A stretch of DNA of 59,094 nucleotides, filler included. It is 6 parts of 6 records of this genome, joined end to end, with 100 filler letters (N's around TTAATTAATTAA, not from the genome) between each part and the next. Parts side by side here need not be neighbours in the genome. Positions count along the whole stretch, not along the records: positions 47,720 to 52,768 come from SRR31147125_1044; 5 more parts are not named here. The stretch is one strand, 5' to 3'. Below, piece by piece: positions 9,831 through 52,768 of the stretch; positions within the stretch are counted from its first letter, which is position 1; each line of letters starts with the position of its first letter. The translations under genes were made by a program, and so were the position numbers. The notes beneath the pieces were generated by a model. That model saw only the letters and a program-made list of their open reading frames with translations, was not told the DNA's origin and searched no databases.

Positions 9831-9930
9831 NNNNNNNNNNNNNNNNNNNNNNNNNNNNNNNNNNNNNNNNNNNNTTAATTAATTAANNNNNNNNNNNNNN
9901 NNNNNNNNNNNNNNNNNNNNNNNNNNNNNN
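9831..9930. other. Artificial contig linker
   Basis: N run with central TTAATTAATTAA (stops in all six frames). Confidence 0.98.
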
Positions 9931-43812: not shown

Positions 43813-45207
43813 CTAATCGGTGGTCTGGATTTTATGTTTTACCATAAGACGATGAAAATTCTGCCGGGACATTTTACTCGCTCTTGCAGCGGCGCTTACA
43901 TTTTTATTATATCGCCCGAGCTGTTCCGTAATGAATTGTTTCTCAAATTTATCCAGGAGATAATCTCGGGATTCGCTAAAATTAGAACTAAAAATAGGCA
44001 ACGGACTTTCTTTTATTGACGCGGTATAAAGGCGGGCCCGAATAACATCAGGAAGGATCACTTCCCCTTTTGTTAACATGACGGCTCGCTCAATAAGATT
44101 TTCCAGCTCCCGAACATTTCCAGGATAGGAATAAGATTGTAGTAATTTCATAGCCTCATCGGAAAAGCCCTTAATCCCCTTTTTCAGTTGATAATTATAT
44201 CTTTCAAGAAAATAATTCGCAAGTAAAGGAATGTCTTCACAACGGTCCCTCAATGTGGGTAGCTCTATTGTCACAACATTTAAACGAAAATATAAATCCT
44301 CTCTAAAGGAGCCGTCTTTGACTTTAAGGGCAATATCCTGATTTGTTGCGGCAAGAAAACGCGCTTTGATCTGTATCGGATTGTTCCCTCCCAATCGTTC
44401 AAACTCTCTTTCCTGTAAAACTCTGAGTAGTTTTAACTGCAAATTTTCAGTCAAATCCCCAATTTCATCGAGAAAAATAGTACCTTTCTGGGCAACCTCA
44501 AACTTTCCAAGTTTTCTCTCTGCGGCTCCGGTAAAACTACCTTTTTCATACCCGAATAATTCAGATTCCAGCAGGGTATCCGGAAATGCGGTACAATTAA
44601 TAGCGATAAAAGGTTCTTGTGGAAAGGCACTATTGCTATGAATGGCTCTTGCCACCAATTCTTTACCCGTCCCACTTTCTCCGACAATTAAAACGGGTGT
44701 TTGATTCGACGTAGTAGAAACAGAGCCAACCAGTTTGTAGATTTCCTGCATACGCTCACTATTACCAACAAGTTCATGCTGATCCAAAATATCCGCTTTG
44801 AATAGTATACGGTCAACAGCCGGACTCTGAACACTTAACAATGCTCTTTTGATAGCTTCCCGAACTTTAGCGACAGCCAGAGGTTTCGTCAGATATTCAA
44901 AAGCTCCCAGTTTTATCGCCCTGATTGCCGTGTGCATAGTACCATGGCCGGTAATAATAATGACTGGAATGGTTCTATACTGCTGTTTTATTTGCGTCAA
45001 GGCTGCCATTCCATCCATATCAGGCATGGTTATATCCATGAAAATAAGTTGAGGCTTTTCTCTGGCAATTTTATCCATGGCATCCCTGCCATTTTTCGCC
45101 TCAATGCTGGTGTATCCTTCCTTTTCAAATAGCTGGCGAAAAGCGAACAAAATATGCTCGTCGTCATCAACGACCAATATTTTCACGTTATTCATCACGT
45201 TATTCAT
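43813..45207 (-). CDS. Sigma54-dependent response regulator (NtrC family)
   Basis: REC domain, GESGTGKE, ESELFGYEKGSFTGA, FLDEIG, YPGNVREL, Fis-type HTH. Confidence 0.95.
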   Translation of the reverse strand: MNNVMNNVKILVVDDDEHILFAFRQLFEKEGYTSIEAKNGRDAMDKIAREKPQLIFMDITMPDMDGMAALTQIKQQYRTIPVIIITGHGTMHTAIRAIKLGAFEYLTKPLAVAKVREAIKRALLSVQSPAVDRILFKADILDQHELVGNSERMQEIYKLVGSVSTTSNQTPVLIVGESGTGKELVARAIHSNSAFPQEPFIAINCTAFPDTLLESELFGYEKGSFTGAAERKLGKFEVAQKGTIFLDEIGDLTENLQLKLLRVLQEREFERLGGNNPIQIKARFLAATNQDIALKVKDGSFREDLYFRLNVVTIELPTLRDRCEDIPLLANYFLERYNYQLKKGIKGFSDEAMKLLQSYSYPGNVRELENLIERAVMLTKGEVILPDVIRARLYTASIKESPLPIFSSNFSESRDYLLDKFEKQFITEQLGRYNKNVSAAARASKMSRQNFHRLMVKHKIQTTD

Positions 45208-47619
45208 AATGTTGCTCTTTCCTAGGCAGGGGTAAATATATTGTAAACGTTGTTCCATTACCAGGATTACTATGAACTTGTATGATACCCGCATGGGCAT
45301 TAACAATACGCTTGACAATGGAAAGTCCAAGTCCTGTGCCACTGGTTTTGGTGGTAAAAAAAGGATCAAATACGCGACTGAGCTTTTTAGCTTCTATACC
45401 CTTTCCTGTATCGGTAATTTCAAACAAAACACACTTTGTTCCTGCTGATAAAATCAATTCCGGATCACTGTTTGCTATTGGCAGCACATTTTCATGTCCT
45501 CCAACATTGGTGATACAAAGCTCCCGTAATGGTTGTTTTAACACAACTTTTCTCGTATTTATCAAAATTTCCCGCACACCTGTCGTTTCGGTTTTAGCAA
45601 CAATTGCGTGAATGGCATTCAAATACAAGTTAATCAACATTTCTCTAAAATTATTTTTATCAAGCGGTAAAAGTGGAACCTGATGATAAAGTTTTTTCCT
45701 GATCTTAATATTTTCTTTATCAAGTTGTGTTTTTACTATTGCAAGACTACTCTCAATAATATCGTTCAATTTACATGGTGTAAAAGTCAGTGGAGCAGGA
45801 CGCGAAACGTCCAAAAGTTGTTTTACAATGCTTTCCAAATGGTTAATAGAATCCAGGGCAACGGCAAGGGATTTAAAATCTGAATCGCACAGGTTATTCG
45901 ATTCATACAATAATTCCAAAATCATTCTTACCGAGGTCAGGCCATTCCGGAATTCGTGCGAGATCATGGCTGCCATTTCGCCAACAACCATGAGCTTTTC
46001 AGTATGCACCAGCTTTTTTTCCAGTTGTTTCTGCAACGTAACATCTCGTTTTACGCCCACAATCCCTTCAATTTTCCCATAAGAATCATAAATGGGTGAT
46101 ACGGAATTTTGGAAATATCTGGTTCCTGAGGGAAATTCACGAGACCATTCATACACGGTATGCTCTCCCTCAAGTACCCGATCATTGGATTTTTCATGCA
46201 CAGCTGCCACTTGAGATCCAAATACATCCCGCATCGTTTTGCCATAAAATCGATCAACAGGGATACCTGACTCTTCAAACCAGTTGCCAAAAATTTCAAC
46301 AAAGCGCTGTTCCCGATCGAGAGTAAATACCGTATCATCCATGGATTCAACCAATGTTCGAAAACGTTCCTCACTGGAACTTAAAGCTTCGTTAGCCATG
46401 GAGAGCTCTTTTGTTCGCTCCTGCACCCGTATTTCCAGTTCATCGTGCGATGTACGTAATGCCCGTTCCATTTCAATACGATCGGTAATATCGCGAATGA
46501 TACCAGTAAAAAAAGTCTCTTCTCCTGCCTTCCAGGTTGCAAGCGAGAGTTCAATTGGAAATTCATGGCCATCTTTCCCAATAGCTGCCAATTCCAATCT
46601 CTTACCAATTAGATGTGAAACACCAGTATCCACGACCTTCTTAAAAGCGTCATCGTGTGCTTTGTGGAATCGCTCCGGCATTAATATAGTAATTGGCTTT
46701 CCAAGGACATCCTTCGAAGTATAGCCAAACATCTTTTCTGCGCTTTTGTTCCACAATACAATATTTCCGTTACTGCCTGCGGAGATAATCGCATCACTGG
46801 CAGTGTGGGCCACAGATCGAAAACGTTGTTCACTCTTTTCCAGAGATTCCAATGTTCGACTATTGATAAGAGCGACAGCTGCAAGCTCACCGAAAGCGCA
46901 AGCCATGTTTACATCCTCTTCATTAAAGCCGCCTTTTTTATTGGCAAGCCCAAGCAATCCAACTGGCTGATCATCAATAATTAACGGAACAAACAGAACA
47001 TTCTCAAGCGTAACATGCCCATCCGGTAAATAGGTCATCCATTGACTTTGAGCAAAATCATTGCAATATACTGGTTTTTCTTTTTATACGCAAGTTCCCG
47101 AAAACCCCGCACAGGCATTGGTAAATCTGAATCCACCATGCAATCATGATCACCCGGATCCAAATAAACAATCTGGTTATTTTTGGCACCCGTAGCCAAT
47201 AAAGCGACATATCCGGAATCAGCACTTATGAGCTTTTTGCAGGAATCAAATAAGACTTTCGAGGCATCATGAAAATTTCTGTTTTCCAGGACAGCACGTG
47301 CCCCTTCTAAAAGAGCGGTAACTTCCTCCTGGCGTTTTTTAGTGACATCCAGAGCGTTGTTCAGCTCTTCTTCTCTTTGTTTCCGTTCCGTGATATCCCG
47401 AACAATGCCTATCATACGTACAGCCTTGTTATTCTCGTTTCGGATAACACTGCCTTTTTCAGATACCCATCTCACCTCCCCATTCGGCCACAAGATACGA
47501 TGTTCAATGTCAAAATCCTTAATACCTTCAAGGCTGGCGCGTGTAGAATCAAACACATAATGTCGATCTTCAGGGTGCACGCATTCTATAAATGCATCGT
47601 ATGTGCCATTAAATCCCCC
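45200..47619 (-). CDS. PAS/GAF sensor histidine kinase (5' partial; 1-nt frameshift near 47075-47086)
   Basis: PAS-GAF-PAS-PAS, SHEFRN, NLYLNA, DTGKG, FFTTK, GTGLGL. Confidence 0.88.
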
Positions 47620-47719
47620 NNNNNNNNNNNNNNNNNNNNNNNNNNNNNNNNNNNNNNNNNNNNTTAATTAATTAANNNNNNNNNNNNNNNNNNNNNNNNN
47701 NNNNNNNNNNNNNNNNNNN
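47620..47719. other. Artificial contig linker
   Basis: N run with TTAATTAATTAA. Confidence 0.98.
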
Positions 47720-47746
47720 TCACTAGTTCGAATCTAGTATCGCCCA
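47720..47746 (+). tRNA. 3' end of a tRNA (probably Val; anticodon not visible)
   Basis: T arm ACTAG-TTCGAAT-CTAGT, acceptor strand ATCGCCC plus discriminator A. Confidence 0.75.
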
Positions 47747-47757
47747 CATCTCAAAAT

Positions 47758-47789
47758 AAAAGCCTTAGAAGAAATTCTAAGGCTTTTTT
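47758..47789 (+). terminator. Terminator after the tRNA
   Basis: AAAAGCCTTAGAA-gaaa-TTCTAAGGCTTTTTT. Confidence 0.85.
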
Positions 47790-47904
47790 GTTTTAAGCGG
47801 TTTACATTTTCCCTTTTTAATCAGAAACTATTTTTTTATAATGGATTGTGTCTTCGTTTTATAATCAATAAATTAGACAGATTATTTTAATCTTCTTTTT
47901 AATT

Positions 47905-50900
47905 GTGACTGAAATTCTAGATATCACAGGAAATGAAATTGAACAACTTAAAGACGACCATCTTCGAGAACTAATCGGACTACTTTGCGAGGCAGAATAT
48001 CGAAAAGCCTCACTTTCGACTCAAGGGGTAACCTGGGGAGGAAATCAAGATGCTGTCGATGGTGGGCTTGATGTTATAATTAACAGCAATAAAATCCCTC
48101 AAGAAAATGGCTTTATACCAAGGTCACAATGTGGCTTTCAGGTAAAAAAGCCAGACATGCCAAGAAATGCAATCTTGAAAGAGATGCGACCACAAAATCA
48201 TTTAAGAGACAGTATTAAAGAACTAATTGAAAAGAACGGAGCATATATTATTGTTAGCTCAGGCAGTTCAACTTCTGACACAGCATTAAAAAATCGATGC
48301 AATGCAATGAAAGAAGCTGTCTCTGATCAGAAAAATTCGGAACATCTTTTTTTACAATTTATGGATCGCGGACAAGTTGCTACATGGGTTCGTTCACATC
48401 CATCTTTGATATTATGGGTTCGACAAAAAATAGGCCGCCCTTTAAGTGGCTGGAAGCCCTATGAGAATTGGTCGAAGTCTCCCGGAGGAATTAATGAGGT
48501 ATATTTACTTGACGATTCTATCAAGCTCTATAAAGGAATAAAGACCTCTGATGACAAAGGAATGTCTGCAGAAGGTGCTATTTCTGAACTTAGAAAAGTT
48601 CTTTCCCAAAAAAGAGTCTCAGTCAGATTAACTGGACTTTCGGGTGTTGGAAAAACTCGCTTAATTCAAGCTTTGTTTGATGAAAGAATAGGAACAAACC
48701 CTTTAAATAAAGAGCAAGTATTCTATACCGATATTTCTGATAGTCCAGTACCTACATCACAATCATTCGCTGAACAGCTTATTGCTTTTAGGAGAAGGGC
48801 AATTCTTATTATTGACAATTGCTCTCATGAGCTTCATGAGAAACTAACAAGTTTATGTTCTGATTCAGAAAGCCGAATTAGTTTAATAACGGTTGAATAC
48901 GATGTCAGGGATCATCTACCTGAATCAACTGATGCTTATAGGTTAGAGCCATCAAGCGATCAGCTTATTGAAAAACTAATACAAACGAGATTTGAACATA
49001 TTAGCCAAGTAGATGCTAAAACAATTGCAACCAATTCTGGCGGAAATTTTCGTATTGCAATTGCATTGGCAGAAACATTGAAGCAAAATGAATCCCTATC
49101 TCATTTTCACAATAACTTATTATTCGAAAGACTTTTCTGGCAGAATAATGAGCGTAATGATGATTTGTTGCTTGCTGGTGAAGTGTGTTCTCTGGTCTAT
49201 TCTTTTGAAGGAACAGATACCGAGTCAGAGGAATCAGAACTTCAGTTTCTAGCCTCTTTAATCCGCAAACCTGTTGATGAATTATATCGAAATATAAATT
49301 TCTTGAAAGAAAGGGATCTGGTACAATCTCGCTCAAAATGGAGGGCTGTTCTTCCTCATGCAATTGCAAATTGGCTTGCTACAAAGGCTCTTGAATCGAT
49401 CCCCAAGGACACAATTGAAAAAGCATTCATTAATAGTAATTCGGAAAGATTAATAATATCATTTACACGCCGTTTGAATTATTTACATGACAGCGAAATT
49501 GCCGTTGAGATTGTTGATGATTGGCTTAAAGAAGAAGGGTATGTAGGCAAGCATATCCACAACCTTAACCATTTTGAATTCGATATATTTCGAAATATTG
49601 CCCCTGTTGCGCCAGAAAAAACTTTGCTAGCAATTGAAAGAGCAGTTAAAAGTAATCTGAAATTTATAACAAGAGAAAACAGACATTACAATGAATTCAC
49701 AAATATATTGCTGCATTTAGCCTATGATGCAGAACTTTTTCTAAGAAGTGTGAAAATTTTAATTGAATTTGTAGCTTCGGAAGATCCCAACGAAAACACA
49801 AATTCAACCAATGAAAAACTTAAATCCCTATTTTATATCCATCTTTCTGGTACACACGCAACATTGGAAATGCGGGTTCAGGTTATTGAAGACCTATTAC
49901 ATTCTGATAGCCAAAAAATGCAAAGTTTAGGGATAAAATGTCTGGACGCAGCATTGGAATCCTCTCAGTTTTTCTCTCACAATGATTTTAGGTGGGGTGC
50001 ACGATCAAGAGATTTTGGTTATATGCCAAAAACATATAAGGAATGGAATATTTGGTTTAAAAGGTTTTTAGAAATAGCTTTCCAATTATCCATGTCAGAA
50101 AAACTTATTTCTAATGACGTAAAAGAAGTCTTAGCTACACAATTAAATGGACTATGGACTGATGTTCACTTATTTGATGAAATTGAAAACGCAGTAAGAA
50201 CAATTCATGATCAATCTCCTTGGCAAGATGGTTGGCTTGCGGTTAGAAATATAATGCGAATTAATGGTAAAAGCTTTAGCCGAGAAATAAAAGACCGACT
50301 CATCAATTTAGAAAATTATCTTAGGCCAGACTCATTATTGGAGAAAGCTCGTGTAATGGTTCTGTCAAAAGGAGTTTATCCCTATGAACTGGAAGATATC
50401 GAATTTGATGTAAAAATAAAGGCATCGGCCAGGATGGATAAACTTGATGAAAAGGCAATGGAAATTGGCTATAAAGTTGCAAAAGATTCAAATACGTTAA
50501 AAAAAATTGCAAATGAAGTAGTTACCATTTTTGCAAAACGGGCATTTCCCTTTGGAAAAGGGTTAGCTAAAGGCTCTCAGAATTTAGAAAACACCTGGGA
50601 TATTTTATATAAAGGATTTGCACAGACTAAAAAAGAAGAGCAAGGGATTCAGATTTTTCGAGGTTTTTTGTATCAAAGTTCAAATATTGACAATAAGTTT
50701 TATAATACAAAGCTTGACCAGATGGTCAAAGATGATCTTTTGGGAGAATGGTTTCCTATTTTGCAAACATCTTCTGTGATTGATAAAAAAGCTCTTGAAC
50801 GCCTTCATCATTCTATTGATTTTGAGAAAGCCCCCATTGGTGCATACCAAAATATTGCTTTTGGAGAAAGTCACTTGAGTATAAGCGATTCTGAACTTGC

Positions 50901-51735
50901 TAGATTGATAAAAAAACTGATGCCAAAAGATGAAAATCTGAATACTTCTATTGAAATATTGAGTATGAGATTTTATGCTAAAGAGAAAACCCAAAATGTT
51001 GCAAGACCTTTGATCAATGTCGCCCAAAAAGTTTTATCCTCATATAACTTTCCTAAAAATGTTAATAAAGAAAATGATGATTTTAGGCTATCACAAATTA
51101 GCAATATTGTTTTAGGTAAGACTAGTGGCGATAAAACAGCACAAAGGATAATTGGCAATTATATTAACACCAGAAAAGAATATTTTGCAGCAATTGATGA
51201 TTATCCCGACCTTTTGCAAAGTCTATTAAAATATCATCCAACAGCATTCTTAGAAGGATTTTTAAATAATAAATCTCTAGATAATAATTCCTTAAAAAGA
51301 TTATTTAGGTCTGATCCTTACCAGAATAAATGTCTTTTTGATGCTATTCCAATGAATATTTTACTTGATTGGTGTAAGGTTGAATCCGAGTCTCGATATA
51401 AAATACTCACTTCAGTTATAATCCCTTTTAACAAACATAAAAATAAAGAAGAGTTTGACTGGAAACCTATCATTTATCACATTCTTGAGAATTCAACTAT
51501 TACTGAAGAAATCCTAGAAAATTTATCTGTATCAATTAGGCCAAAAGTATATTGGGGTTCAAGGGCGGACATATTGGACAGCCGTTCAAAATTATTCGTT
51601 AAGCTATTTGATCACAACAATGGGGTCATTTCCTCATGGGCAAAAGATAGACACTTCCAACTGCAAGAAGAAATTAGAAGAATGGGAGAATGGGAACATA
51701 AACTAGAAAGTGAAAGGGATGAAAGCTTTGAGTAA
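47905..51735 (+). CDS. Large nuclease-like / STAND-type P-loop NTPase / helical-repeat protein (Avs/NLR-like, putative antiphage)
   Basis: N-terminal DGGLD...FQVK (PD-(D/E/Q)xK-like), Walker A GLSGVGKT, Walker B ILIIDNC, SGGN hinge, ~750-aa helical C-terminus. Confidence 0.7.
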   Translation: MTEILDITGNEIEQLKDDHLRELIGLLCEAEYRKASLSTQGVTWGGNQDAVDGGLDVIINSNKIPQENGFIPRSQCGFQVKKPDMPRNAILKEMRPQNHLRDSIKELIEKNGAYIIVSSGSSTSDTALKNRCNAMKEAVSDQKNSEHLFLQFMDRGQVATWVRSHPSLILWVRQKIGRPLSGWKPYENWSKSPGGINEVYLLDDSIKLYKGIKTSDDKGMSAEGAISELRKVLSQKRVSVRLTGLSGVGKTRLIQALFDERIGTNPLNKEQVFYTDISDSPVPTSQSFAEQLIAFRRRAILIIDNCSHELHEKLTSLCSDSESRISLITVEYDVRDHLPESTDAYRLEPSSDQLIEKLIQTRFEHISQVDAKTIATNSGGNFRIAIALAETLKQNESLSHFHNNLLFERLFWQNNERNDDLLLAGEVCSLVYSFEGTDTESEESELQFLASLIRKPVDELYRNINFLKERDLVQSRSKWRAVLPHAIANWLATKALESIPKDTIEKAFINSNSERLIISFTRRLNYLHDSEIAVEIVDDWLKEEGYVGKHIHNLNHFEFDIFRNIAPVAPEKTLLAIERAVKSNLKFITRENRHYNEFTNILLHLAYDAELFLRSVKILIEFVASEDPNENTNSTNEKLKSLFYIHLSGTHATLEMRVQVIEDLLHSDSQKMQSLGIKCLDAALESSQFFSHNDFRWGARSRDFGYMPKTYKEWNIWFKRFLEIAFQLSMSEKLISNDVKEVLATQLNGLWTDVHLFDEIENAVRTIHDQSPWQDGWLAVRNIMRINGKSFSREIKDRLINLENYLRPDSLLEKARVMVLSKGVYPYELEDIEFDVKIKASARMDKLDEKAMEIGYKVAKDSNTLKKIANEVVTIFAKRAFPFGKGLAKGSQNLENTWDILYKGFAQTKKEEQGIQIFRGFLYQSSNIDNKFYNTKLDQMVKDDLLGEWFPILQTSSVIDKKALERLHHSIDFEKAPIGAYQNIAFGESHLSISDSELARLIKKLMPKDENLNTSIEILSMRFYAKEKTQNVARPLINVAQKVLSSYNFPKNVNKENDDFRLSQISNIVLGKTSGDKTAQRIIGNYINTRKEYFAAIDDYPDLLQSLLKYHPTAFLEGFLNNKSLDNNSLKRLFRSDPYQNKCLFDAIPMNILLDWCKVESESRYKILTSVIIPFNKHKNKEEFDWKPIIYHILENSTITEEILENLSVSIRPKVYWGSRADILDSRSKLFVKLFDHNNGVISSWAKDRHFQLQEEIRRMGEWEHKLESERDESFE

Positions 51736-51801
51736 TGGTATGTATCTAGAACCTTTGTAAAGCTTTTGCATTTTTCAATTTTAAAAAGTTTAGTAATAAG
51801 G

Positions 51802-52110
51802 TTATCTCAATCTCTTTTTTAATCGTCTCATTAAATCCATTCTTTCATGGAATAGGGCAATAATCATTAATGGTTTGTTCTCTCTAATAAGTCCAAATAT
51901 GTAATGTTTTTGGCAATGTGTAACGCTGATTGTGCGATTTCTTATTTTTATATCTTTATAATAGCCATCTCCTTTGGCTATGGATTCCATGCAGTTAAGT
52001 AGTTGTTTTGTGTATTTTATTGTTTGGTTTTTGCCGTGGCGTTCAAGTGTATAGTCAACAATTTCTTCCCAATCTTTTAGTGCATCATGGCTTCTTTCAT
52101 ATAAAATCAT
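51802..52110 (-). CDS. ParE/RelE-family toxin
   Basis: ALKDWEEIVDYT..HG, HCQKHYIF, IIALFHERMDL. Confidence 0.85.
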   Translation of the reverse strand: MILYERSHDALKDWEEIVDYTLERHGKNQTIKYTKQLLNCMESIAKGDGYYKDIKIRNRTISVTHCQKHYIFGLIRENKPLMIIALFHERMDLMRRLKKRLR

Positions 52111-52367
52111 TTAGCAGACTTACTCTTATTGATTATTTCTTCGGTTAATTGTTCAAATGACTTTTCTGATGGAGAGTTGTTTTCTGCATTCTCGATTCGT
52201 TTCATTAAAAGTTCTTCAAGTTCATTCCAAGTTTGATCTTTGTCAGATTCATCCTCGGGAAATAATTTACCAAGCACATAATCTTTAACTGTCTTTCCTT
52301 GCAATACCGCCATTGCTTTAATTTTCTGGTGTTGCTCGCCTGATACATCAATAACCAATCGACTCAT
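52107..52367 (-). CDS. RHH-type antitoxin (ParD-like)
   Basis: MSRLVIDVSGEQHQKIKAMAVLQGKTVKDY; ATGA overlap with the toxin. Confidence 0.8.
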   Translation of the reverse strand: MSRLVIDVSGEQHQKIKAMAVLQGKTVKDYVLGKLFPEDESDKDQTWNELEELLMKRIENAENNSPSEKSFEQLTEEIINKSKSAK

Positions 52368-52389
52368 AATCTTACAACTTTTATTAAAA

Positions 52390-52411
52390 TGTACATTTGT
52401 ACAAATGTACA
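52390..52411. promoter_or_regulatory. Putative antitoxin operator: three TGTACA palindromes with 8-bp period
   Basis: TGTACA-tt-TGTACA-aa-TGTACA directly upstream of the antitoxin ATG. Confidence 0.65.
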
Positions 52412-52459
52412 AATTATTCAGGTGTTATTTAATTTTGATTATGGTTAAAGTGGTTGGTT

Positions 52460-52768
52460 TCAAATCCTAAACCTCTCATCCAACTTCTTTTTACCAGACT
52501 TACTTATGCGGTATTGATTTCCGTTAGTTAATACGGCTACATATTCATCGTTTGAAAAATGCTCTATGTTTACAATTGCTGAGACATTTACCAAAGCACC
52601 CCTGTGTACCCTTACAAACTCACCCGGATTTAATTTTTCCTCGAAGTTATTTAACGATTTTCTTACCAGGTATTCTTGATTTTCCGTTATAACTTTTACA
52701 TAGTAGTCAGCAGCCTCAATGCATAGAATGTCTGACGTTTGTATAAAAGCTACTCCACCACCTTTTTT
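52460..52768 (-). CDS. LytTR DNA-binding domain protein (5' partial; absent from the ORF track)
   Basis: Manual translation ...DILCIEAADYYVKV...LVRKSLNNFEEKL...FVRVHRGALVN...ISKSGKKKLDERFRI*. Confidence 0.85.
   Translation of the reverse strand, partial: KKGGGVAFIQTSDILCIEAADYYVKVITENQEYLVRKSLNNFEEKLNPGEFVRVHRGALVNVSAIVNIEHFSNDEYVAVLTNGNQYRISKSGKKKLDERFRI

Follow-up and report, generated by a model that had tools for sequence, protein, structure and literature searches.

An intact predicted stand-alone Avs8A-like gene, a distant member of the Avs8 (PD-lambda-4) family

A single large gene in the 59,094-nucleotide stretch of DNA analysed here (the window) encodes, with a probability that we put at roughly 0.8, a stand-alone Avs8 (PD-lambda-4A) antiviral STAND protein (Table 1). 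Judged by sequence comparison, the gene is an intact, distant representative of the Avs8 (PD-lambda-4) family, which is already known, and not a new kind of system. Pfam leaves it almost blank; it can now be given a precise predicted function, that of a capsid-sensing abortive-infection nuclease. The first-pass annotation had described a single-gene antiviral pattern-recognition protein composed of a nuclease, a STAND NTPase and a sensor, and could not assign it to a named Avs type. This reading of the architecture was retained, whereas the novelty was not.

Table 1. Features of the contig carrying the avs8A-like gene, in window coordinates.
Feature	Position	Strand	Basis
tRNA 3' fragment (T arm, acceptor 3' strand, discriminator), cut by contig edge	47720..47746	+	Rfam RF00005
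Intrinsic-terminator-like hairpin with T run	47758..47787	+	13-bp stem, 4 G-C pairs, 4-nt loop, TTGTTTT tail; inverted repeat I10
avs8A-like gene (PD-lambda-4A family), 1276 aa, GTG start	47905..51735	+	ORF; PADLOC PDLC03991; BLASTP against EcAvs8A
Predicted N-terminal effector, Mrr-like PD-(D/E)xK nuclease, residues 1-200	47905..48504	+	E29, D52, D56, Q79, K81; motif in EcAvs8A
STAND NTPase, residues ~201-500, Walker A and B, helical and winged-helix domains	48505..49404	+	Foldseek, VIA-align, motifs
C-terminal alpha-helical repeat sensor, residues 501-1276	49405..51732	+	AF2; PDLC03989; alignment with EcAvs8A C-terminus
parE toxin gene, 102 aa, convergent with avs8A	51802..52110	-	PF05016 E 1.6e-8, 35.4 bits, cut-off 23
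parD antitoxin gene, 86 aa from ATG at 52367	52107..52367	-	PF09386 E 2.2e-28, 98.9 bits, cut-off 27.3
TGTACA-rich palindrome upstream of parD	52385..52416	.	Inverted repeats I13 and I17, 16-nt arms, 88% complementary, no spacer
LytTR response-regulator gene, 3' part, cut by contig end	52463..52768	-	PF04397 E 2.8e-24

Family membership and relatives

PD-lambda-4 is reportedly the system of Vassallo et al. 2022; a passage on PD-lambda-4 was not found in the main text of that paper. PD-lambda-4A is renamed Avs8 in the available passages of a recent preprint (10.1101/2025.07.02.662641). The PADLOC PD-Lambda-4_A profile PDLC03991 covers the protein essentially over its full length (E 5.3e-302, 1003 bits; residues 4-1276 align with positions 3-1283 of the 1283 in the profile), which overturns the earlier view that it could not be assigned to a named Avs type. 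The two partial models, PDLC03990 (E 1.3e-123) and PDLC03989 (E 1.2e-18, residues 831-1270), are matched as well, and at E <= 0.01 PADLOC returns PD-Lambda-4_A models only, with no Avs1-5 (AVAST) model and no other defence family. For scale, the same full-length profile gives 2531.7 bits for E. coli Avs8A (EcAvs8A; PD-lambda-4A, ECOR07, WP_000963924.1) and between 823 and 1125 bits, again over full length, for seven of seven homologues checked from other phyla, and the protein is therefore a typical non-enterobacterial member.

Direct comparison with EcAvs8A leads to the same assignment. BLASTP yields a single collinear alignment with 32% identity (403/1265) and 3% gaps, running from residues 4-1247 of the protein against 3-1254 of EcAvs8A, and the two are of nearly equal length (1276 and 1283 aa). 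They share the domain order of an Mrr-type nuclease with a D...QxK motif, a STAND NTPase with GLSGVGKTR and hhhhDNC motifs, and a helical sensor. A full-length hit to a characterised Avs protein, which the first-pass annotation had named as the result that would remove the novelty, was thus found in EcAvs8A. The differences are the low overall identity of only 31-32% and the gene neighbourhood: in E. coli an Avs8B gene lies downstream, whereas none does here. The two genes downstream of the avs8A-like gene match no PADLOC model, and hence no PD-Lambda-4_B, and tblastn with EcAvs8B across 84 loci and the window matches only its own E. coli locus. Because Avs8B is dispensable in E. coli, where Avs8A alone gives the defence of the full system in the preprint's account (10.1101/2025.07.02.662641), we do not count its absence against membership.

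Stand-alone Avs8A-like relatives (P0002 and L001-L080, for example) are about 1277 aa long and align from residues 1-4. The 120 matches listed are 46-51% identical over 94-100% of the query, and the closest among them reaches 51% overall and 40% in the last third. By record title they come from Chloroflexota, Bacillota, Bacteroidota, Planctomycetota, Desulfobacterota and others, and of 600 pattern matches in the genomes of species from many phyla, 489 are relatives; tblastn against 50,697 phage records gave no match. A 2024 survey, in the portion of its text available, reports PD-Lambda-4 only in Proteobacteria (10.1101/2024.10.26.620412). Like the gene described here, the environmental relatives are single genes with no conserved neighbour: in 80 related loci with 552 flanking ORFs, each family is found in three loci at most. 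As stand-alone Avs8A was never accompanied by Avs8B in the loci examined, detection rules that require two genes would miss such genes.

One relative (L049) carries an in-frame stop, which would suit the idea that the protein has decayed into an inactive relic, or is a STAND protein with a role outside defence, for instance a regulator. We regard this as highly improbable, given that a 3.8-kb frame stays open in DNA of 35% G+C, that every invariant catalytic and NTP-binding residue is kept, and that the defence role of the family has been demonstrated experimentally.

Domain architecture and proposed mechanism

Several features were found just as the first-pass annotation had described them, namely the single ORF of 1276 codons, the motifs DGGLD (residue 52), FQVK (78), GLSGVGKT (244), ILIIDN (300) and SGGN (378), the long helical C-terminus, the terminator hairpin with its T tail and the convergent ParE/ParD pair. 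In the N-terminal 200 residues, the D...QxK residues of a predicted Mrr-type nuclease are intact: E29, D52, G54, D56, Q79 and K81 are invariant in a 57-sequence family alignment, and the motif aligns with PDGGID...FQAKK of EcAvs8A. In the AF2 model the elements of this domain follow the order alpha-beta-beta-beta-alpha-beta, and strands 2 and 3 carry the motif residues; in an ESM Atlas search with the same 200 residues Mrr_cat clusters made up 19 of the 30 matches. Profile methods did not show a link to Mrr: an hhalign comparison between E. coli Mrr and the profile of the family gave no match (probability 0.3), and Pfam Mrr_cat matched none of 12 family members at E <= 1; Pfam returned no nuclease family for them, only AAA-type matches below their cut-offs. 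The NTPase took up the lists from all three fold searches, one with Foldseek and two with VIA (wide and second look), and the VIA matches covered only about residues 170-560.

The structural models show residues ~201-500 to be a STAND-fold NTPase with intact Walker A (GLSGVGKTR, 244-252) and Walker B (ILIID, 300-304) motifs, and G244-R252, D304, G379, G380, N381 and R383 are invariant in the 57-sequence alignment. With the model of residues 1-560, Foldseek retrieved 6mfv_A (1.3e-8) and the portal-bound Avs4 structure 8DGF (chain A, E 6.4e-7), and VIA-align gave Z scores of 13.6 for Apaf-1 (3sfz; rmsd 7.2, 312 aligned), 13.5 for NLRC4 (rmsd 5.0, 317 aligned) and 13.2 for 6mfv. By sequence, Pfam AAA_14, AAA_16 and AAA_22 match the NTPase region only below their cut-offs, and the family profile matched no PDB chain at E <= 0.01 and only noise at E <= 10. 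Avs4 (AVAST type 4) has the same arrangement of N-terminal nuclease, STAND NTPase and helical sensor, and it works by directly binding a conserved phage structural protein, a mode of action that the avs8A-like protein may share by analogy. In contrast, there is no match between the two at the sequence level, the sensor folds are only generically similar, and the target of Avs4 is the portal and not a capsid protein.

The biology of Avs8 is described in the accessible parts of the preprint cited above (10.1101/2025.07.02.662641). EcAvs8A binds the monomeric HK97-fold major capsid protein, with KD values of 127 nM for lambda gpE and 14 nM for the Bas21 capsid protein, and binding switches on the N-terminal Mrr-type DNase. 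This DNase activity is triggered by capsid protein in an ATP- and Mg2+-dependent manner, is not triggered by assembled capsids, and defence is lost in nuclease active-site mutants (10.1101/2025.07.02.662641). Sensing of the major capsid protein by Avs8 is also reported as an independent finding in the consulted part of a second preprint (10.64898/2026.01.04.697583). By analogy with E. coli Avs8A, we propose the following hypothetical sequence of events, in which (i) in the infected cell, the sensor would bind HK97-fold major capsid protein that has just been made and is still monomeric; (ii) the NTPase, with ATP and Mg2+, would then drive assembly, with a tetramer as the predicted form; and (iii) assembly would switch on the N-terminal nuclease, leading to degradation of phage and host dsDNA and to abortion of the infection. 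According to this scenario, the avs8A-like gene would need no partner gene.

Divergence of the sensor and its predicted trigger

The AF2 model of residues 501-1276 is all-helical (pLDDT 87.1, pTM 0.75), and a fold search with it returned generic alpha-solenoids only (karyopherin, SF3b; TM 0.2-0.3). Alignment shows homology with the E. coli Avs8A sensor over its whole length, as the C-terminal 376 residues alone still match the EcAvs8A C-terminus with 19% identity (E 1e-14). Identity to EcAvs8A is 40% for residues 1-200, 38% for 201-420 and 43% for 421-560, and amounts to 30.1% for 561-900 and about 18.4% for 901-1276. The suggestion in the first-pass annotation that the phage trigger may be undescribed is at odds with the HK97-fold major capsid protein published for EcAvs8A; because identity to that protein drops to ~18% in the last ~375 residues, conservation of the trigger here is something that we infer by analogy.

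The same divergence, together with the distance even to the closest homologue among the matches listed, would allow a second reading, in which the protein belongs to the Avs8 family but its sensor has drifted to read something other than the HK97-fold major capsid protein, so that the trigger of this clade would be undescribed. The target could then lie on a different surface, belong to a separate capsid lineage or be some other phage protein. Avs families whose heads resemble each other can have different targets, and a Gao-lab preprint, in the passages available, defines Avs families by the structural cluster of the sensor. We consider such a change of target unlikely, since the sensor is collinear with that of EcAvs8A with few gaps and matches the C-terminal profile of the family. 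Moreover, EcAvs8A itself is described as recognising, through their fold, capsid proteins that share less than 15% identity, so that drift of the sensor need not change the target class (10.1101/2025.07.02.662641, as far as its available text goes). We therefore favour the HK97-fold major capsid protein as the predicted trigger, and a family member whose distal sensor is just 18% identical may offer a useful comparison for identifying which sensor surfaces read the HK97 fold.

Contig context, tRNA fragment and the ParDE pair

The window is a chain of contigs held together by five N/TTAATTAATTAA linkers (0.11 expected by chance), which the first-pass annotation had missed. Base 47720 is the first after an N44-TTAATTAATTAA-N44 linker, and the avs8A-like locus is a separate contig of 5,049 bases (47720-52768). 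Consequently, the PAS gene on its left and alaS and ruvX on its right are not its true neighbours. The contig ends within a LytTR response-regulator gene whose best relatives are proteins of 260-262 aa with PF00072 and PF04397; this fragment is context and lies outside the defence system. In the rest of the window, the PADLOC models for GajB and for a DRT helicase each matched two members, and NCBIfam placed two members each in UvrD/PcrA/Rep helicase families; we read the PADLOC matches as probable cross-hits to UvrD/PcrA/Rep-type helicases. No further defence family appeared there among the 25 of 58 families listed.

At the left edge, the contig begins with what the first-pass annotation called a tRNA 3' end. 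By eye the 27 nt form a T stem of 5 bp without mismatch, closed by a TTCGAAT loop, and then 7 nt of acceptor strand and the discriminator A, and they match RF00005 at model positions 43-71 of 71. This part of the claim is only partly confirmed: the match, 5'-truncated by the contig edge, is not significant alone (15.1 bits, E 1.2), ARAGORN found no tRNA in the window and no Rfam family reached its gathering score there. The hairpin that follows is probably the terminator of this tRNA. Among sequencing runs, a single DNA run, a possible source of this DNA, contains the stretch, and no RNA run is listed for it, which weighs neither for nor against a role of the gene. In a unitig assembly of this probable source run, a second unitig shares only the first 30 nt (47720-47749) and then diverges, which fits a repeated or polymorphic tRNA end, and the fragment may mark a variable spot in the genome. 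The proposal of a tRNA-borne island was weakened: the fragment occurs once, with no direct repeat of it in the contig or the window, and the contig has no unassigned ORF of integrase size. On a contig of this length, the far border of an island may lie outside. The EcAvs8A copy, in contrast, sits in an ssrA-integrated island with an integrase.

The two genes convergent with the avs8A-like gene appear to be a real, adjacent and overlapping type II toxin-antitoxin pair. They resemble ParDE of the RK2/RP4 type in that both Pfam matches exceed their cut-offs, the antitoxin gene comes first, the parE ATG overlaps the parD stop, as read from the letters, and a palindrome lies upstream. The parD ORF has 101 codons and is open back to a TTG at 52412; because the PF09386 match begins at residue 16, the ATG at 52367 is the probable start. 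The palindrome is likely a putative autoregulatory operator.

Defence islands commonly hold toxin-antitoxin pairs, and the avs8A-like gene and ParDE are only 66 bp apart on one contig. One could accordingly envisage a single functional unit, for instance a two-part island in which the toxin-antitoxin pair stabilises or regulates the defence gene. We think there is very little chance of this. The survey of flanking ORFs given above, in which no family recurs in more than three of the 80 loci, speaks against such a unit and also undercuts the earlier view of ParDE as part of an island. In the unitig assembly, moreover, avs8 and parD are not spanned by any one piece. The two pieces concerned share just 30 nt, within parE, and have unequal depths (37.1 vs 49.3), and the right-hand one departs from the window sequence at five places. 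ParDE would rather be an independent type II toxin-antitoxin module beside a stand-alone Avs8A gene.

A broader and rather doubtful scenario would combine several of these features. The clade is widespread outside enterobacteria, and its sensor may have adapted to capsid lineages, or to some other phage protein, that EcAvs8A does not see; the position directly after a tRNA without an integrase, which occurs in 3 of the 80 relatives, might represent a small integrase-less defence spot; and the host might be a Mollicute. One other contig in the chain carries an Acholeplasmataceae-like AlaRS, and nothing ties the 5-kb contig to it. Correlations of tetranucleotide usage (0.90-0.93) are too alike to discriminate the host of the contig. 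If the two contigs did belong together, the host of this NLR-like capsid sensor would be a Mollicute, lacking a wall and having a small genome, from a group whose phages are barely known.

Assignment of the protein to Avs8 and its predicted architecture

The window protein, an effector-STAND-sensor protein of 1276 residues encoded by the gene that we call avs8, is a divergent, stand-alone Avs8. Pfam returned AAA-type matches only, all below the cut-offs and within residues 230–307. The full-length PADLOC profile of PD-Lambda-4_A (PDLC03991) matched residues 4–1276 over profile positions 3–1283 of 1283 (E 5.3e-302, 1003 bits). Both partial PD-Lambda-4_A models matched too, and no other PADLOC defence family matched at E 0.01 or better. 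PD-lambda-4 is now named Avs8 in two reports (10.1101/2025.07.02.662641; 10.64898/2026.01.04.697583). The first-pass annotation, which proposed an NLR-like antiphage island and suggested a PADLOC search, had been unable to assign the protein to a named Avs type; this full-length match and the collinear similarity to the E. coli protein overturn that view.

The tested E. coli protein, EcAvs8A (WP_000963924.1; 10.1101/2025.07.02.662641), is annotated together with its partner EcAvs8B (WP_000443183.1) in E. coli FORC_069, where the pair adjoins ssrA and an integrase; the two match PD-Lambda-4_A with 2531.7 bits and PD-Lambda-4_B with E 2.1e-164, respectively. BLASTP of the window protein against EcAvs8A gave a single collinear alignment with 403 of 1265 positions identical (32%) and 3% gaps. 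Identity was 40.2% in residues 1–200, 38.1% in 201–420, 43.2% in 421–560, 30.1% in 561–900 and 18.4% in 901–1276, and the last 376 residues alone align with EcAvs8A at E 1e-14. The FORC_069 locus also encodes, between the integrase and Avs8A, a 1248-aa hypothetical protein (L083:1787-5533, minus strand) that matched no PADLOC model at E ≤0.01.

All five motifs named in the first-pass annotation lie where it placed them, starting at residues 52 (DGGLD), 78 (FQVK), 244 (GLSGVGKT), 300 (ILIIDN) and 378 (SGGN), and its reading of a nuclease-STAND-helical architecture was right. The motifs are not chance strings: E29, D52, G54, D56, Q79 and K81 as well as G244–R252, D304, G379, G380, N381 and R383 are invariant across a 57-member family alignment. 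In the model of residues 1–560 (pLDDT 86.3, pTM 0.81), a helix (17–34) is followed by strands at 42–44, 57–60 and 75–81, by helices and by a strand at 113–118; D56 opens the second strand and the third carries Q79-x-K81, an order that we take to be the PD-(D/E)xK arrangement. The fold-search lists cover only about residues 170–560, where the predicted NTPase module matches STAND proteins: Foldseek, likewise suggested by the first pass, found 6mfv_A (1.3e-8) and Avs4 (8dgf_A, 6.4e-7), and VIA-align found Apaf-1 (3sfz, Z 13.6), NLRC4 (Z 13.5), 6mfv (Z 13.2), NRC2 (Z 12.2) and MalT (Z 11.6–11.9). Evidence on the N-terminal nuclease from outside the fold searches is mixed: hhalign found no match to E. 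coli Mrr and Pfam Mrr_cat matched none of 12 family members, whereas 19 of 30 ESM Atlas matches to residues 1–200 were clusters with Mrr_cat (score 0.90). Residues 501–1276 are modelled as an all-helical solenoid (pLDDT 87.1), and the sensor model returned only generic karyopherin-like matches (TM 0.2–0.3); a PDB sequence search found no solved structure of the family.

Proposed function by comparison with E. coli Avs8A

In E. coli, Avs8A alone equals the operon in lambda defence, Avs8B being dispensable, and EcAvs8A binds lambda gpE with a KD of 127 nM and the Bas21 capsid protein with a KD of 14 nM (10.1101/2025.07.02.662641). With either capsid protein present, EcAvs8A degrades linear dsDNA in a reaction that requires Mg2+ and ATP and is not seen with AMP-PNP, and assembled virions do not trigger the nuclease; the N-terminal domain is called Mrr-family, and active-site mutants lose defence (10.1101/2025.07.02.662641). 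A screen reports the same capsid-protein trigger for Avs8, with the sensor modelled against the capsid A-domain, on the face that forms pentons and hexons (10.64898/2026.01.04.697583). At the level of sequence, the window protein is homologous to Avs8A and retains the predicted catalytic residues, and we infer that its trigger, oligomeric state and defence function would be as in EcAvs8A.

Distribution and genomic neighbourhoods of the family

Judged from database searches, the family is large and uniform, with 2600 of the 8000 proteins scored reaching E 0.001 or better, and with 46–51% identity and lengths of 1212–1302 aa among the 120 matches listed. With one genome per species, at least 489 relatives occurred among the 600 pattern matches listed. 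According to their record titles, the stand-alone homologues at the 80 loci kept belong to Chloroflexota, Bacillota, Bacteroidota, Planctomycetota, Desulfobacterota, Fibrobacterota, Cloacimonadota and others, and all seven homologues tested, from different phyla, matched PD-Lambda-4_A over its full length. A Cytophagales copy (L049:6001-9822) contains one in-frame stop and could be a pseudogene or reflect a sequencing error. A homologue was present in 45 plasmid records and in none of the phage records searched; an enterobacterial copy was matched by 174 of 5426 E. coli genomes.

A 2024 survey places PD-Lambda-4 in Proteobacteria only (10.1101/2024.10.26.620412), a restriction that we suspect is due to two-gene rules requiring Avs8B. 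In tblastn against 84 loci and the window, EcAvs8B found its own locus only and was absent from all 80 relatives, and PD-Lambda-4_B matched none of the 10 genes directly downstream. No neighbour is conserved, the largest family among 552 flanking ORFs at the 80 loci being found at three. The flanking genes often look defence-related: among the 132 nearest ORFs, four were type I restriction enzymes, and methyltransferases, GajB, OloB and mad2 were represented by two each, and the Enterobacter plasmid copy has a neighbour that is Abi/PD-T4-5-like.

Boundaries, flanks and host of the avs8 contig

Bases 47620–47719, left of the locus, read N44-TTAATTAATTAA-N44 and form an artificial boundary. The same linker, with stops in all six frames, occurs at 9875, 23609, 32485 and 52813 besides 47664. 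Chance would give 0.11 matches in the window where there are five, so the window consists of six contigs joined in a chain. Gene neighbourhoods spanning the linkers are artificial, and the first-pass annotation overlooked these joints. Because the PAS-domain gene on the left side and both alaS and ruvX on the right belong to other contigs, none of them is a neighbour of avs8, whose contig (47720–52768) comprises 5,049 bases with 34.0% G+C.

Features of the avs8 contig
Feature	Position	Remarks
tRNA-like 3' fragment, 27 nt	47720-47746	first element on contig
Hairpin terminator	47758-47787	between tRNA fragment and avs8
avs8, 1276 codons, GTG start	47905-51735	plus strand
parE	51802-52110	convergent with avs8
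parD	52107-52367	convergent with avs8
Palindrome TGTACA-TT-TGTACA-AA-TGTACA	52385-52416	just upstream of parD
LytTR response-regulator gene, 3' part		runs off contig; PF04397, E 2.8e-24

A tRNA 3' end and a terminator had been proposed before the gene. The hairpin stands, whereas the tRNA is weakly supported: ARAGORN called zero tRNAs and Rfam gave zero matches at gathering score in the window, and under permissive thresholds the fragment matched positions 43–71 of the 71-position tRNA model, 5'-truncated, with 15.1 bits (E 1.2). Its sequence corresponds to a perfect T arm followed by an acceptor strand. Of the 80 relatives, three (L039, L047, L062) have a same-strand tRNA no more than 500 bp upstream, and there the gene starts 266–382 bp after the tRNA (SeC, Phe, Arg); at nine of the 80 loci the upstream sequence is shorter than 500 bp. 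Two more (L019, L069) have a tRNA further upstream, and odd ARAGORN calls inside the gene (L053) or just after it (L054) were left out of the count. No integrase was found among 10 flanking proteins from L019, L039, L047 and L062; the seven flanking genes tested at the latter three, none of them an integrase, include those for a PLD-like nuclease and for a DUF4238 protein.

Unitigs were assembled from the only public run found to contain this DNA, which is a possible source of it and so not independent. Their graph branches 3 nt past the tRNA end (47720–47749) and again inside parE (51931–51960). A 92-nt unitig matches the window only at 47720–47749 and then diverges, and the main unitig runs on into avs8. 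The piece carrying avs8 has a depth of 37.1, the alternative one 31.3 and the one with parDE and LytTR 49.3. In that sample, therefore, the tRNA end is followed by two continuations, owing to another copy of the tRNA or to a between-strain presence/absence difference, and this also accounts for the contig break. The branching and the depths hint at variation of the avs8 segment within the population sampled, or else at repeated flanks. The avs8 and parDE pieces overlap by 30 nt inside parE, and the right-hand unitig differs from the window by four bases and one insertion.

The parE/parD pair, correctly described in the first pass as convergent with the large gene, is a textbook case of parDE: the stop and start codons overlap, and upstream lies a TGTACA-rich palindrome that is likely the ParD operator for autoregulation. 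It is linked to avs8 by proximity alone and nothing further.

AlaRS on the next contig (52919–55540) is Acholeplasmataceae-like, with 90% identity to one protein and 69–76% to named Acholeplasmataceae proteins. Elsewhere in the chain, contigs encode glutathione synthase and PAS sensor kinases (46–915, 43813–47580) and are richer in G+C, and the set may mix two organisms. Tetranucleotide correlation of the avs8 contig is 0.90–0.93 with every other contig in the chain and singles out none of them; the composition of the avs8 gene (34.8% G+C, 25.6% at third codon positions) fits a low-G+C host.
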